From assembly GCA_048268245.1 (NCBI GenBank), contig JBLWVX010000010.1, positions 1 to 64,000 of the forward strand: a stretch of DNA of 64,000 bases. The letters run 5' to 3'. Below are positions 15,452 to 19,738 of this stretch, piece after piece. The position numbers were made by a program, and so were the translations under genes. The notes beneath the pieces are model-generated. The model was given only the letters and a program-made list of their open reading frames with translations, was not told where the DNA came from and made no database searches. Position 1 is the first letter of the stretch. Each line of letters begins with the position of its first letter. This DNA comes from Arcobacteraceae bacterium. GTDB lineage: Bacteria; Campylobacterota; Campylobacteria; Campylobacterales; Arcobacteraceae.

Positions 15452-15841
15452 ATGTTAAAAGCAATAGTAAAAAGTATACAAACAGAAGAAATTATACATC
15501 TTGTAGAATTTAGTTTTCATCAAACAACTTTGAAAATGTTAAGTTTAGAGCTAAATGACAATATAAAAATAGGAACAAAAGTAGCTTTATCTATCAAGTC
15601 AACTCATATAACTTTAGCAAAAAAGTTTTCAGGAGAGCTTAGCTGTAGCAACCAAATAAAAGCAAAAATTGATGATATTAAAAATGGAAAAATTTTAAGT
15701 TCGATTATACTAAATATAGATGGTGATATTTTAGAAGCTATTATTACAAGTAGTGCAGCTTTTGATATGAACTTAAAAAAAGATGATGATGTAATAGTGT
15801 TAATAAAAGCAAGTGAAATATCTATAAAAGAAGTATTATAA
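15452..15841 (+). CDS. Di-TOBE (Mop/molbindin-like) protein
   Basis: LSCSNQI, AIIT, LIKASEI TOBE motifs. ATG 15452 is well spaced from AGGA. Confidence 0.85.
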   Translation: MLKAIVKSIQTEEIIHLVEFSFHQTTLKMLSLELNDNIKIGTKVALSIKSTHITLAKKFSGELSCSNQIKAKIDDIKNGKILSSIILNIDGDILEAIITSSAAFDMNLKKDDDVIVLIKASEISIKEVL

Positions 15842-16530
15842 TGTTTGATTTACTTTTAAATATTGAACTAACACCTTTTTATATCTCTTTTAAGTTGGCA
15901 CTTATTACAACTATTATTCTATTTATAATTGCCCTACCCTTATCATGGTGGCTTAGCCAGAGTAATTCAAAAGTAAAACCTTTTATTGAAGCAATTACAG
16001 CATTACCTATTGTATTACCTCCATCAGTAATTGGTTTTTATATACTTTGGGCATTATCAAGCAACTCTTATATAGGAGCTTTCTTTGAAGAGACTTTTGG
16101 AATACAACTTGTGTTTAATTTTACAGGCTTAGTAATAGCTAGTTGTTTTTATAGTCTTCCTTTTATGGTTCAACCCTTACAGAGTGGTTTTGAAAACCTA
16201 AATAAAAATATGCTTGAAGCAAGTTATATAAGTGGTAAAAGTAAACTAATCACCCTATTTAAAGTAGCACTACCAAATATCAAACCTTCACTTTTAACTG
16301 CACTTATTGTAACTTTTGCCCATACTGTAGGCGAATTTGGTGTAGTTTTGATGATAGGAGGAAGTATTCCAGGTGAAACTAAAGTGGCATCTGTAGCTAT
16401 ATATGAATTTGTTGAAATCTTGGATTATGGTATGGCCCATGTATATAGTGCTATTATGTTAGGACTTAGCTTCTTAGTATTACTAAGTGTTTATATTTTT
16501 AATGCAAAACAGAAAAAGAGTTTTATTTAA
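15841..16530 (+). CDS. modB: Molybdate ABC transporter permease
   Basis: LPIVLPPSVIGFY, FAHTVGEFGVVLMIGGSIPGET. Confidence 0.95.
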   Translation: MFDLLLNIELTPFYISFKLALITTIILFIIALPLSWWLSQSNSKVKPFIEAITALPIVLPPSVIGFYILWALSSNSYIGAFFEETFGIQLVFNFTGLVIASCFYSLPFMVQPLQSGFENLNKNMLEASYISGKSKLITLFKVALPNIKPSLLTALIVTFAHTVGEFGVVLMIGGSIPGETKVASVAIYEFVEILDYGMAHVYSAIMLGLSFLVLLSVYIFNAKQKKSFI

Positions 16531-16560
16531 TTTCAATATGAAATACTTTTATAAATAAAT

Positions 16561-16592
16561 TATAATTTATGTTATCATAAGCTTTGATAACA
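16561..16592 (+). promoter_or_regulatory. Putative -10 box and palindrome upstream of the toxin gene
   Basis: TATAAT 16561-16566; TGTTATCA-N7-TGATAACA 16570-16592. Confidence 0.5.
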
Positions 16593-16605
16593 ATTAGGAT
16601 TACTT

Positions 16606-16998
16606 ATGAAAGACTATGATAAATGGAATAAAGTTAAAAAAGAGACTTCAAACCAAAATAACTTCTTTACTTTTAAAGTTAGAGAAATTTATTGGCTAAA
16701 GGTTGGATATAACATAGGATATGAAGTATATGGGAAAGGAGATGACTATTTAAGACCAGTGTTAATTTTAAGAAAATTTAGCAAAGAAAGCTTCTTAGGA
16801 ATTCCTTTAACAAGTTCAACGAAAAAGGATATGTTTCATTATGGATTTTATCCCCTAAATAAAGATAAAAAGAATTATGCCATGCTGTCACAAATAAAAC
16901 TGTTTTCTTCAAAAAGAATACACGATAAAATGGGTAAAATTTCTGTAGAAGATTTTAAAAAGTTAAAAGTAAATTTAAAAGAATTAATTGGATTATAA
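16606..16998 (+). CDS. PemK/MazF-family endoribonuclease toxin, no protein antitoxin
   Basis: EIYW..VGYNIGYEVYGK...RPVLIL...GIPLTS...LSQIK..SSKRI..KMGKI matches the PemK/MazF pattern. Only 75 nt separate it from modB. Confidence 0.85.
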   Translation: MKDYDKWNKVKKETSNQNNFFTFKVREIYWLKVGYNIGYEVYGKGDDYLRPVLILRKFSKESFLGIPLTSSTKKDMFHYGFYPLNKDKKNYAMLSQIKLFSSKRIHDKMGKISVEDFKKLKVNLKELIGL

Positions 16999-17044
16999 AT
17001 ACTCCCCTAAAGATTAGGGGCTTCCTGCAAGCAGGTTGGTTTGT
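16998..17044 (-). ncRNA. Candidate ~45-nt antitoxin RNA, convergent to the MazF-like gene
   Basis: Minus strand reads ACAAACCAA-CCTG(CTTG)CAGG-AAG-CCCCTAA(TCT)TTAGGGG-AGTATT, directly downstream of a consensus promoter. Ends are inferred. Confidence 0.6.
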
Positions 17045-17050
17045 AAGAGA

Positions 17051-17079
17051 ATTATATAACAAAAGAATATATATGTCAA
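17051..17079 (-). promoter_or_regulatory. Consensus sigma70 promoter on the minus strand
   Basis: TTGACA (17079-17074), 17-nt spacer, TATAAT (17056-17051). Confidence 0.8.
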
Positions 17080-17091
17080 GAAAGGAAAAAA

Positions 17092-18873
17092 GTGGAACTT
17101 GTTTATTTATGGATTAAAGATTATAAAAATATAAAGGAGCAAGGGTTTAATTTCTCTCCTAGGTTTGAGTGTAAATATGATAAAGATTCAAATAAGTTGA
17201 CTATTGATGAAAATAAAAAGTATGTTAATATTTTTCCTGAAAATATTAATGTTACTGCTATTGTTGGTGAGAATGGGAGTGGGAAAAGTACTATTTTAAA
17301 ATATATAGCACAATATTTATCATTATTATTAACTAGAATAGATTCAATAGCACTTTCTCCAGATACTTTTATTTTTATTTTTTTTGATAAATTATCAAAT
17401 AATATTTATACTGCAGGAAATGTTCTAGAAGATACTCATATAATAAATAAAACTGTATACAAAACTTTCTCGAATAAGATAGAAACATTTAAGTCAAAGA
17501 AATATATTGATTTTTTAAAAAGTAAAAAACATGATAAAATGATAAGTCTTGATACAAATGAAAGATACAATAACTCTATACATAAACACCTTCTTAAAAA
17601 AAATTTAAACAAATTAATAAATAATTCCTTTACACTCCACTATGATTATTCTTTTAATATGTTTACAAACTATCATAGTGAAACTAATTTTTTATCTGTG
17701 CCTAATAAGGAGTACGATATTTATCAACATCATAATTATGATAAAACTTTATTAGTTGAACACATAATTAATAAGTCATACATTGAAAAAGAGAAAAAAT
17801 ACTTTGAACCAAGTAAACTCTTAATATTGTTTCAGCCACTTAAAAATCTTAAGTTTCAATTTAAACAAAACATGAGTATTAAAGAATTTATGGTGTTTCT
17901 AATTAATAGCAGTATCTTTGAATTATTGAAAAGACAACATAGAAACTTTATCAATAATAAAAATGCTGAAAATAATCCAGAGTTATTAGACAATTTAATA
18001 ACTAATAATATTAAATCAATTAAAGAAATTATAGATAATCAAACAAAACAAGTTCCCTTAGCATATCAACTAAAAGATTTAGTTAATTATCTAAAGATAT
18101 TAAAAAAAACTAATTCTTTAAACATCTTTTCAATTGATAAAGAGTATGAGAGGATAAATATAAATATTAATTATCTTAATGATAATAACATTAAACTTTT
18201 AACACAAATTCCTACTGATATATTAAAGCTAAAAATTTATTCAGATAATTTTGATTATGATGATTTAAGTAATGGAGAAAAATCAGCTCTTAGAATAAGA
18301 TTTTATATTGAAAGAGCAATACAAAATAGCAAAAGAGACAATTATTTTATTTTACTTGATGAAGCTGATAATGAACTACATCCGCAATGGCAAAAAAAGC
18401 TTATTAAATATCTATATGACATTTTTAAAAATAGAAGAGAAACTTTTCATTTTATCTTAACTTCCCACTCACCTTTTATACTTTCAGACTTACCAAAAGA
18501 AAATATAATTTTTCTAGAAAATGGGAAGCAAGAATACCCATTTAAAGATAATGAGCAAACTTTTGGAGCAAATATACATACCCTACTTTCCCATGGTTTT
18601 TTTATGGAAGATGGTCTCATGGGAGAATACGCAAAAGAGAAAATAAATGAAGTTATTGAAATATTAAAGCATGATAGTTTATCTTCTGATGAAATAAAAA
18701 CTTGCAAAGATATTATCTCAATAATTGGTGAGCCAATTTTACAAAAGACCTTACAAAGTCAATTAGATATGAAACTTTATCCAAAAGAAACTCAATTAGA
18801 AAAACTTGAAAGAGAACAAAGAGAAATTCAAGCAGAAATAGATGAGCTAAAGAAAAAAAATGAAACAGATTGA
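17092..18873 (+). CDS. ABC/AAA ATPase, Septu PtuA-like
   Basis: Walker A GENGSGKST, signature LSNGEK, Walker B ILLDEADNELHPQWQ, H-loop TSHSPFILSD, TFGANIHTLL; overlaps an HNH gene. Confidence 0.8.
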   Translation: MELVYLWIKDYKNIKEQGFNFSPRFECKYDKDSNKLTIDENKKYVNIFPENINVTAIVGENGSGKSTILKYIAQYLSLLLTRIDSIALSPDTFIFIFFDKLSNNIYTAGNVLEDTHIINKTVYKTFSNKIETFKSKKYIDFLKSKKHDKMISLDTNERYNNSIHKHLLKKNLNKLINNSFTLHYDYSFNMFTNYHSETNFLSVPNKEYDIYQHHNYDKTLLVEHIINKSYIEKEKKYFEPSKLLILFQPLKNLKFQFKQNMSIKEFMVFLINSSIFELLKRQHRNFINNKNAENNPELLDNLITNNIKSIKEIIDNQTKQVPLAYQLKDLVNYLKILKKTNSLNIFSIDKEYERINININYLNDNNIKLLTQIPTDILKLKIYSDNFDYDDLSNGEKSALRIRFYIERAIQNSKRDNYFILLDEADNELHPQWQKKLIKYLYDIFKNRRETFHFILTSHSPFILSDLPKENIIFLENGKQEYPFKDNEQTFGANIHTLLSHGFFMEDGLMGEYAKEKINEVIEILKHDSLSSDEIKTCKDIISIIGEPILQKTLQSQLDMKLYPKETQLEKLEREQREIQAEIDELKKKNETD

Positions 18874-19738
18874 TTTATCTATAGTAAATGATGATTTTTT
18901 AGAAAGCTATTATAACTCTATAAATATAGAAAATATAAAAAAAGAGCTTAGTGATAGAAAATATAAAAAAATCACTGATAATTTAGAACTTCTAATAAAA
19001 GCCGATTTAAGTGAAATTAAAAGCAAACTAAATTTATGTGATAGCTATTCATTTGAAGAAAAAAAAGAAATCAAAAAAGCTTTTAACTATTCAAACCATA
19101 GACAAAATGAAAAATTTATGGAACATTTCAAAAAGTTAAATATAAGAAGTTGCCCTTTTTGTAACAACAACTATGTATACTTTTACAAAAAAAAGAAGGA
19201 TAAATATAATACAATAGCAACACTAGAACACTACTATCCAAAATCAAAATACCCTCATCTATCTTTATCTTTTTATAACCTCATTCCTTCATGTAATACT
19301 TGTAATAGCAAGTTCAAAGGTAATGATAGTCATGAAGGAAATATACTTCATCCATATTTTGAAGATTTCAGTGAAAAAGTCAAGTTCTATATAAGCGTAA
19401 ATGCACTTCCAGTAGATAAAGATATAAAATTAGAAGTTAATCTTCACACTGATGATACTCGAAGTAAAAAAACTATTGATAGGTTCCAATTAAAAGAAGT
19501 ATATTCAGAACATGATGATATGGCAAAAGAGATATGGAATAAAGCACAAGCATACAATGAGTCAAGAATTGAAGAACTATATGAAAGTTTTTTCAAAGAC
19601 TTAAACTATACAAAAGAAGATGTTAAAAATATGGCTTTTTGTAACTATTTACATGAAGATGATATTAATAAAAGAAACCATAGTAAATTAACACAAGATA
19701 TATTAAAACAGTTTGATTTAATAAAAGAGAATAAATGA
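18860..19738 (+). CDS. HNH endonuclease, Septu PtuB-like
   Basis: CPFC...LEHYYPKSKYP...NLIPSCNTCN zinc-HNH pattern. Confidence 0.8.
   Translation: MKQIDLSIVNDDFLESYYNSINIENIKKELSDRKYKKITDNLELLIKADLSEIKSKLNLCDSYSFEEKKEIKKAFNYSNHRQNEKFMEHFKKLNIRSCPFCNNNYVYFYKKKKDKYNTIATLEHYYPKSKYPHLSLSFYNLIPSCNTCNSKFKGNDSHEGNILHPYFEDFSEKVKFYISVNALPVDKDIKLEVNLHTDDTRSKKTIDRFQLKEVYSEHDDMAKEIWNKAQAYNESRIEELYESFFKDLNYTKEDVKNMAFCNYLHEDDINKRNHSKLTQDILKQFDLIKENK

Follow-up and report, generated by a model that had tools for sequence, protein, structure and literature searches.

A candidate convergent RNA antitoxin beside a MazF/PemK-family toxin gene without a protein antitoxin in an Arcobacteraceae bacterium

MazF proteins are the textbook toxins of type II toxin-antitoxin systems, in which a MazE protein is needed as the partner. 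Type III systems, which pair a toxin with a small RNA, have been proposed to act in phage defence and plasmid maintenance. In the type I systems bsrG/SR4 and txpA/RatA of Bacillus subtilis and par of Enterococcus faecalis, the toxin transcript is met at its 3' end by a convergent and abundant small RNA, which abuts or overlaps it, and the RNase-like toxin of SymE/SymR illustrates that type I toxins are not confined to membrane peptides. Rfam also holds a pemK RNA motif, named for its association with pemK genes. A further pair, cjrA/cjpT of Campylobacter jejuni, is reportedly specific to the plasmid of strain 81-176. In papers citing Shen et al. (2016), cjrA is described as an antisense small RNA antitoxin of type I on plasmid pVir of that strain, and cjpT as the toxin. 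The locus considered here occupies positions 16606 to 17079 of a 64,000-nucleotide (nt) stretch from an Arcobacteraceae bacterium (assembly GCA_048268245.1, contig JBLWVX010000010.1, positions 1 to 64,000 of the forward strand), which is referred to in its entirety as the window. In this locus a MazF/PemK-family gene without a mazE partner is met at its 3' end by a predicted, convergent small RNA. It is likely that this RNA is an antitoxin by one mechanism or another, and we hold it an even call whether the two form a toxin-antitoxin module whose RNA antitoxin probably acts as a cis-antisense.

The toxin gene lies on the plus strand at 16606-16998 and encodes a protein of 130 residues, whose only Pfam match is PF02452 (PemK_toxin; residues 26-127, E 8.1e-9, 36.1 bits where the cut-off is 23.1). 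Facing its 3' end on the minus strand is a sigma-70 type promoter at 17079-17051 (TTGACA-17-TATAAT), which agrees with the consensus at 12 of 12 positions. It is the sole perfect site among the 7 promoter-like sites in 16400-17300; shuffled versions of this region contain 6.0 ± 2.3 promoter-like sites of any quality. The small RNA that this promoter would express in the source organism is predicted to run from 17044 to 17002 on the minus strand (about 43 nt) and to consist of the leader ACAAACCAA, hairpin A, the linker AAG, hairpin B, and a short tail. The start is placed by the spacing from the -10 box, and the end by analogy with CJpv3, a pVir RNA described below, which stops 2 nt past its last hairpin. 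A search for RNA data sets containing 16400-17400 yielded none, only three entries being listed, each with 0.05 of the sampled words. In the single-sequence fold, hairpin A, CCUG(CUUG)CAGG, extends from 17035 to 17024 and hairpin B, CCCCUAA(UCU)UUAGGGG, from 17020 to 17004, both on the minus strand; hairpin B ends 5 nt from the toxin stop codon, and there is no terminator between that codon and the RNA gene. A sequence-only reading of this DNA had pointed to the MazF-fold reading frame, a 75-nt gap before it, the minus-strand promoter and the two hairpins, and each of these is found where it had been placed. The reading had also remarked on GC-rich hairpins in AT-rich DNA, and the G+C contents are indeed 56% in the hairpin block and 27.5% in the window.

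By sequence profile and structure modelling, the protein is assigned to the MazF/PemK family proper, not to ToxN/AbiQ. The AlphaFold2 model (predicted local distance difference test 83.7) has the MazF fold with an extra N-terminal helix, residues 2-15, and the top Foldseek matches are the MazF proteins of Staphylococcus aureus, B. subtilis, Mycobacterium tuberculosis and Escherichia coli (probability 1.00, template modelling score 0.63-0.77). With a profile of 99 relatives, the best solved relative is B. subtilis EndoA/MazF (4mdx, E 1e-5). R50-P51, T69, Q96 and R104 of the window protein align with RPV, the T of AITAQ, Q and R of EndoA, whose Arg25 and Thr48 we take to be the catalytic residues; across the 99 sequences, R50 and P51 do not vary and the conservation of T69 is at least 90%. 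The extra helix is basic and conserved and holds the motif DxWNxxKK, with W7, N8, K11 and K12 invariant or nearly so. The protein is of the soluble MazF-fold kind and not of the small, hydrophobic, membrane-active kind, and it would be expected to be a toxic endoribonuclease.

To collect relatives, one genome per species was scanned, which gave 166 stretches, and 79 loci were kept. The 79 regions compared below are the window and 78 of these loci, one locus being too short. In the 110 nt past each stop codon the same succession is repeatedly encountered, namely a variable hairpin, a small hairpin, and then the reverse complements of TATAAT and TTGAC. Under a strict rule (minus strand; -10 box matching at least 5 of 6 positions and followed after 10-16 nt by hairpin A; at least 3 base pairs in hairpin A and at least 6 in hairpin B), the succession is present directly 3' of the homolog in 47 of the 79 regions. 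The corresponding numbers are 0 of 79 for the plus strand of the same regions, 0 of 244 for regions at a distance of 1.5 or 2.5 kb, and 2 of 395 for dinucleotide shuffles. Under a looser rule (a promoter matching at least 9 of 12 positions, and hairpin B), it is present in 59 of the 79 regions versus 3 of 350 controls, and the median distance between the end of hairpin B and that of the protein domain is 2 nt. In most of the regions that fail the strict rule, variant forms can be made out by eye, several of them with promoters of 12/12 positions; in a number of loci that fail the rules, hairpin A is longer and is often preceded by such a promoter. Three loci (L071, L073, L078) have the promoter and hairpin A and no clear hairpin B, and in three G+C-rich candidate-phyla loci (L061, L065, L076) no sigma-70-like consensus promoter is seen.

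In the homologs, hairpin A takes the forms UCC(UUCG)GGA, GGC(ACUA)GCC and CGC(CUUCGU)GCG, or longer ones, while hairpin B has a pyrimidine-rich 5' arm, a purine-rich 3' arm and a U-rich loop. The single-stranded flanks are conserved, with AAU preceding and CU following hairpin A and (A/G)UAA as the tail. The leaders vary (for example, UACAAA, CUUAAA, UCUAAU and CAUAAA). ACA is not conserved among them, and the earlier suggestion that an ACA in the 5' end makes the RNA a substrate mimic of MazF is therefore abandoned.

A single general covariance model was tried and given up, as MAFFT alignments of mixed classes (A2, A3, A8) misplace the helices and RNAalifold on A2 yields 4 pairs. Class-specific models were therefore built, two of them for class 1 (R1, R2) and a third, R3, with 4 seeds that share the same geometry. 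The window RNA scores 68.3 bits with R1 and 64.5 bits with R2. In 740 kb, R3 has 36 matches at E ≤ 1, of which 35 lie directly 3' of a PemK-like open reading frame (ORF) and on the opposite strand; the lone exception is weak (E 0.77). Among the matches are second copies in three loci (L019, L020, L070) that were found by tblastn only afterwards. In the R3 alignment, 98.4% of the pairing cells are paired, compared with 72.9% after shuffling and 42-64% after sliding of the partner. Changes on both sides are seen in 11 of the 12 pairs (3 of 4 in hairpin A and all 8 modelled pairs in hairpin B), amounting to 102 such cells versus 27 ± 5. A scanner that allows G-U and A-C pairs counts 40 G-U versus 17 A-C overall, and 24 versus 7 at internal pairs flanked by Watson-Crick pairs (p 0.003); this excess of G-U over A-C indicates that the structure is selected on the minus strand. 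The convergent promoter and hairpins noticed in the window are thus borne out as a conserved, covarying, minus-strand RNA tied to a MazF subfamily, and on comparative grounds the RNA is taken to be real.

This RNA is not represented in Rfam as far as was searched. At E ≤ 10 the window region has only a chance-level match to PsrR1 (17.2 bits against a gathering score of 42), and at the gathering score the RNA sites of 17 homolog loci yield one tRNA only. With filters off, R3 gives no convincing match in 21 residual loci, in which variant RNAs are visible by eye. When 151 genomes of the family were scanned with R2, those matches that are weaker than about E 1e-7 were treated as false because they are accompanied by neither the promoter nor a PemK neighbour. 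Five weak R2 matches elsewhere in the source genome, for which R3 gives no confirmation, were likewise treated as false. In three loci (L097, L098, L099, at about 1501-1567; two of them from the same genus), the weak R2 matches mark another conserved element, GAUGCCUUUAUUUUUAUAAAGGAGUA, a hairpin running into a ribosome-binding site and ATG; it lacks the promoter and the PemK neighbour and is unrelated to the toxin-RNA module.

The same stretch of DNA also holds a minus-strand ORF (16955-17062, 35 residues, TTG start) that overlaps the hairpins, and in the minus-strand direction hairpin B together with the following AGUAUUUAUA has a terminator-like score. It might be supposed from this that the antitoxin is a small protein encoded on the minus strand, or that the hairpins are a bidirectional terminator only. 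A minus-strand ORF of at least 30 residues starting inside the RNA is found in 12 of 49 loci, but not in the other 37; moreover, the length from A to B falls into all three classes modulo 3 (22, 16 and 9 cases), even between close relatives, and the changes are of the compensatory base-pair type and not codon-like. A small protein in the RNA region was rejected on the frame classes and the missing ORFs. A terminator would leave the conserved consensus promoter at a fixed distance unexplained, and most homologs have no U-tract after hairpin B. Taken together, these two explanations are considered very improbable.

For two homologs in C. jejuni, published transcript data bear on the predicted promoter. 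The pVir homolog of strain 81-176, CJJ81176_pVir0047, is a PemK/MazF-family protein of 134 residues with 40% identity over 116 residues (E 1e-24); its N-terminal sequence FDEWNEVKK is the same DxWNxxKK motif, and it has no MazE gene. From the pVir sequence, a minus-strand promoter TTGATT-17-TATAAT was predicted, with the start 7 nt after the -10 box. A primary start site is mapped to 31119(-), antisense to pVir0047, with a step height of 16164, the toxin start site to 30608(+) with a step height of 28, and the small RNA CJpv3 (31119-31043, 77 nt) is recorded as 'Detected on Northern blot' (Dugar 2013, PMC3656092). The published 51-nt sequence upstream of the CJpv3 start is the promoter predicted here. 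The toxin start is weak and followed by a 26-nt leader, and the RNA start is about 580-fold stronger than the toxin's own. CJpv3 folds into three hairpins (-25.8 kcal/mol, z -3.9) and ends, without a U-tract, 2 nt past the last hairpin and 4 nt from the stop codon. The prophage copy in strain RM1221, CJE1470, also has an antisense primary start site, with a step height of 74.4 (Dugar 2013, PMC3656092); it lies at the predicted promoter, 7 nt past a TATAAT that agrees with the phage sequence. According to Clark (2014), the CJE1470 MazF protein could be detected in each of the five isolates examined and no MazE gene was found. The predicted start site is therefore present in both homolog loci with differential RNA sequencing data. 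The same spacing puts the expected start of the window RNA at 17044 and its expected length at about 43 nt, in agreement with the start near 17044 originally proposed.

These data also reduce the novelty first attached to the locus. Its layout had been presented as different from those described, which is overstated, because pVir has a 40%-identical homolog with the same layout and, according to the citing papers, cjrA/cjpT was reported there in 2016. The kind of system therefore appears to be on record for one plasmid. What is new is the family-wide RNA structure, missing from Rfam, and its spread into candidate phyla radiation (CPR) bacteria, plasmids and prophages. In the literature search, no account of a conserved convergent RNA for a MazF subfamily was found, and cjrA/cjpT was not found in the supplement of PMC7826846.

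Loss of the toxin with retention of the RNA is observed repeatedly among close relatives. One genome (G024) keeps the last 13 toxin codons, followed by the RNA and promoter and then by an ATPase/HNH gene pair like that which follows the module in the window (HNH protein 93% identical; ATPase conserved in its C-terminal third only). In another (G092), the RNA lies 6 nt past the modB stop codon without a toxin and is followed by the ATPase gene. In a third (G088), a remnant of toxin residues 92-130 precedes the RNA, and modC follows directly, without the ATPase/HNH pair. The three different deletion end-points indicate three separate toxin losses in which the RNA was spared each time. One more orphan RNA adjoins a HigBA-like pair. 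Intact toxins convincingly without the RNA were not found in the relatives examined. This asymmetry, RNA without toxin but not toxin without RNA, is what an antitoxin predicts, and together with the start sites mapped in the two C. jejuni loci it leaves the antitoxin role, as first proposed, the best reading of the RNA.

The source genome itself contains a second copy of the module (G000 contig C13:28110-28496; L087:1501-1932). Its protein is 43% identical and has TGA at the codon of the invariant Trp7, while the promoter (TTGCAT-17-TATAAT) and the RNA, with hairpin UCC(UACG)GGA, are intact. Judged by its sequence, the toxin gene of this copy is probably a pseudogene whose RNA has survived.

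The RNA and promoter have outlasted the toxin in three relatives, and in two of these the promoter is still directly followed by the ATPase gene. This persistence may also be read in another way, namely that the RNA or its promoter is not an antitoxin but a transcriptional device that insulates or tunes read-through into ATPase/HNH or modC, or that it serves the defence pair. The -35 box lies 12 nt from the ATPase start codon, and the module is always situated within runs of co-directional genes, as such a device would have it. However, the downstream genes are unrelated across the 79 homolog loci, none of them being like the ATPase/HNH pair; the toxin remnant and RNA of G088 precede modC without an ATPase; and all model matches but one follow a PemK-like gene. 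The PADLOC candidate system matched by the pair, PDC-M62, has no PemK component either. This explanation is regarded as improbable.

A protein antitoxin is not in evidence. No MazE/PemI-type family occurs among the 74 upstream and 68 downstream ORFs of at least 70 residues at the homolog loci, and the 75-nt gap between modB and the toxin ORF leaves no room for one, as had been stated. The gap is not wholly featureless, for it contains a promoter-like site at 16538-16566 on the plus strand (ATGAAA-17-TATAAT, a consensus match only, at 10 of 12 positions), which may be the toxin gene's own promoter. The only antitoxin-like neighbour among the 74 upstream ORFs is a SocA/Panacea-domain protein gene 54 nt upstream of one homolog (L007:5447-5944).

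The reading favoured here is that of a module of about 500 bp, in which a MazF/PemK-family endoribonuclease toxin would be restrained by a structured RNA antitoxin of about 43 nt and no protein antitoxin. The RNA would be driven by a consensus-strength promoter facing the 3' end of the toxin gene. With no terminator separating the stop codon from the RNA gene, toxin transcripts would run past the stop codon into the complement of the RNA. The abundant RNA would pair with the 3' tail of the toxin mRNA and lower its stability or output, in a type I-like 3'-overlap arrangement such as the citing papers attribute to cjrA/cjpT. Being short-lived, the RNA would disappear once its synthesis stops, and the toxin would win. 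An antisense mode is favoured because the convergent, abutting position is invariant, the terminator is missing, and the citing papers call cjrA antisense. The invariably convergent and abutting position fits the need for overlap in cis. For antisense as the specific mechanism our confidence stays slightly short of even.

A number of points weigh against this reading or the evidence used for it. The single-sequence fold of the window RNA is no better than chance (-13.7 kcal/mol, z -1.48, with 14 of 200 shuffles as good), so that the case rests on comparison. The alignment used for covariation was fitted to the model and hence favours pairing; it is argued that the signal is nevertheless real, because the slid and shuffled controls and the independent scanner agree. 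The pVir RNA scores 5.5 bits with R3, the models being narrow and missing other variant classes as well, and its kinship with the window RNA is therefore judged from position and layout. The identification of cjpT with pVir0047 and of cjrA with CJpv3 is our inference from the citing papers and the mapped pVir transcripts. The RNA or promoter could be kept after toxin loss through another role. CJpv3 ends before the toxin stop codon, and a duplex would thus involve only a 3' untranslated region whose existence is presumed. The loops belong to the stable tetraloops (UUCG, CUUG, GNRA-like), a type ill suited to kissing, and hairpin A together with its flanks hardly varies between loci that encode proteins of only 40-50% identity; both features suit a protein-binding RNA better than a pure antisense. 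Finally, pairing of the RNA with the toxin translation start is -14.0 kcal/mol for cognate and -13.3 kcal/mol for non-cognate combinations (mean rank 0.47, permutation p ~0.05). With cognate pairing hardly better than non-cognate, action in trans on the translation start was set aside as unconvincing.

Several of these points would be accounted for if the small RNA instead bound the MazF-fold protein and blocked its active site, in the manner of type III systems. The toxin may then cut the RNA just after hairpin B, as ToxN does ToxI, and the convergence would reflect compactness and co-inheritance only. The toxin family is one of RNA-binding endoribonucleases. The RNA has a structured core between conserved single-stranded flanks, with stable tetraloops and a hairpin A that hardly changes while the proteins diverge. 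CJpv3 ends just past hairpin B, outside the coding region and without a U-tract, and the subfamily has its extra conserved basic N-terminal helix (W7, N8, K11, K12). In contrast, the invariant orientation and abutment would be needless for a protein ligand acting in trans, the citing papers class cjrA as antisense and type I, the toxin is not of the ToxN family, and there are no tandem repeats; the only repeat at the locus is a 12-nt one of 1.9 copies inside the coding region. On balance this explanation is unlikely, though it deserves serious attention. The same tentative standing is given to its most specific form, a single-unit convergent 'type III' antitoxin in which the toxin would make the RNA 3' end at the (A/G)UAA tail and the WNxxKK helix would be an RNA-binding adaptor.

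Most of the relatives belong to the Campylobacterota (Arcobacteraceae, Sulfurimonas, Sulfuricurvum, Sulfurovum, Helicobacteraceae and Nautiliaceae), and further members are carried by plasmids of Campylobacter and Helicobacter and by CJIE4 prophages of C. jejuni. Thirteen loci (L023, L027, L029, L043, L049, L050, L059, L061, L065, L066, L070, L072, L074), most of them with the RNA, are from CPR bacteria (Peribacteria, Saccharibacteria, Paceibacterota, Woesebacteria and Gracilibacteria), which suggests exchange between CPR bacteria and Campylobacterota of the same habitats. An unrelated upstream gene ends at most 80 nt before the toxin start in 45 of 74 loci, usually on the same strand. The flanking genes are unrelated between loci and include pgk/gap, a pseudouridine synthase gene with pepN, hsdM/hsdS, McrBC components (mcrC/mcrB), ruvA, rpoN, the ATP synthase gamma gene and genes of sugar-nucleotide enzymes. 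The toxin-RNA module has at most a weak promoter of its own and lies behind or between co-directional host genes. In Campylobacter phage CJIE4-1 (L125:1180-1774), for example, a copy lies between the large terminase and portal genes, inside a co-directional operon.

Two other arrangements of PemK-like genes are observed among the loci. Tandem PemK-like pairs occur at L020:6001-7093, L022:4309-6387 and L070:2235-3770; a convergent RNA of its own follows each copy in the first and last of these and also the upstream copy in L022, whereas the contig ends too soon after the second L022 copy for its RNA to be judged. In sugar-nucleotide/pseudaminic-acid-type clusters, the PemK frame is not closed by a stop codon and continues across the RNA region into long ORFs (L018, L019, L024, L028, L035, L037, L046, L062, L073, L075, and L017:2075-3619). 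One such read-through ORF joins PemK and DUF354 domains, and may be a real fusion or a chance read-through.

In the window, the module is lodged in the mod operon, whose order is modE, modA, a gene for a TOBE protein, and modB (15841-16530), with modC resuming at 19735. Three extra genes are inserted between modB and modC, at 16606-16998 (the toxin gene), 17092-18873 and 18860-19738. The second and third, both on the plus strand, encode an ATPase matched by the PADLOC model PDC-M62A (E 5.8e-107) and an HNH protein matched by PDC-M62B (E 8.9e-56); the pair also matches Septu PtuA/PtuB, more weakly. The PemK-like protein has no match in the PADLOC search, in which the PDC-M62 models match the ATPase and HNH proteins only. 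The PemK-like gene was considered as a third PDC-M62 component and rejected, because PADLOC lists no PemK component for PDC-M62, no PDC-M62-like pair adjoins the other homologs (downstream genes of the 79 homolog loci), and G088 has the toxin remnant and RNA without the pair. The ATPase and HNH genes are therefore a neighbouring defence pair, separable from the toxin-RNA module.

The junction of modB and modC (window 16530-19735) is a recurrent insertion site, differently filled in at least four genomes of the family; in three genomes of the same genus (L118, L119, L121) the site is empty and modB runs directly into modC. When the ATPase/HNH pair of the window (17092-19738) is compared with that of another genome of the same genus (L123:875-3545), the HNH proteins are 93% identical, and the ATPases are almost the same over the last ~150 residues and cannot be aligned over the first ~380. 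From this alignment it looks as if the N-terminal or sensor region of the ATPase has been swapped between the two.

The comparison points to a whole MazF subfamily that is without MazE and carries a tiny convergent RNA instead. If cjrA/cjpT is a member, a result reported for a single plasmid is extended to a widespread family with a defined RNA structure. The comparison also accounts for 'orphan MazF' annotations such as CJE1470, whose protein is expressed in C. jejuni lysogens. The subfamily offers a clean way to ask whether antisense pairing or binding of the enzyme restrains the toxin; if direct protein binding is true, this would be the first MazF proper restrained by an RNA ligand. Both the lodging of the module between co-directional genes (pgk/gap, hsdM/hsdS, terminase/portal, modB/modC) and the repeated loss of the toxin with the RNA kept are instructive for the spread and decay of minimal addiction modules.

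Among described systems, cjrA/cjpT (pVir0047 and CJpv3, if the identities proposed above are correct) resembles the window locus in its homologous toxin with the N-terminal motif, the lack of MazE, the convergent sigma-70 type promoter, and an RNA ending in two hairpins by the stop codon, the window RNA being predicted from sequence. It differs in that the pVir RNA is 77 nt long with an extra 5' hairpin, and in that the pVir copy is plasmid-borne while the window copy is chromosomal, inside the mod operon. The type I 3'-overlap systems (bsrG/SR4, txpA/RatA, par) likewise have a convergent RNA at the toxin 3' end. In contrast to them, the window toxin is a soluble MazF-fold protein of 130 residues, the RNA is far shorter (~43 nt), and the mapped homolog RNA, CJpv3, stops before the coding region. 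Complementarity of the type I kind would arise here from a convergent RNA gene 5 nt past the stop codon with no terminator in between, and the overlap would depend on a presumed 3' untranslated region of the toxin transcript. Type II MazEF/PemIK systems share with the window the toxin family, the fold and the aligned active-site residues; the window has no MazE/PemI gene or room for one, and its toxin has the extra N-terminal helix. As for the Rfam pemK motif, no Rfam family matches the window region at E ≤ 10 beyond the chance-level PsrR1 match, and none matches the RNA sites of the 17 homolog loci at the gathering score. Type III systems (ToxIN, CptIN, TenpIN) likewise lack a protein antitoxin and combine a small structured RNA with an RNase toxin whose fold is Kid/MazF-like in the wider sense. 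Their toxin is ToxN/AbiQ and their RNA an upstream, same-strand tandem-repeat array, whereas the window toxin is assigned to MazF/PemK proper and its predicted RNA is single, downstream and convergent, with a promoter of its own.

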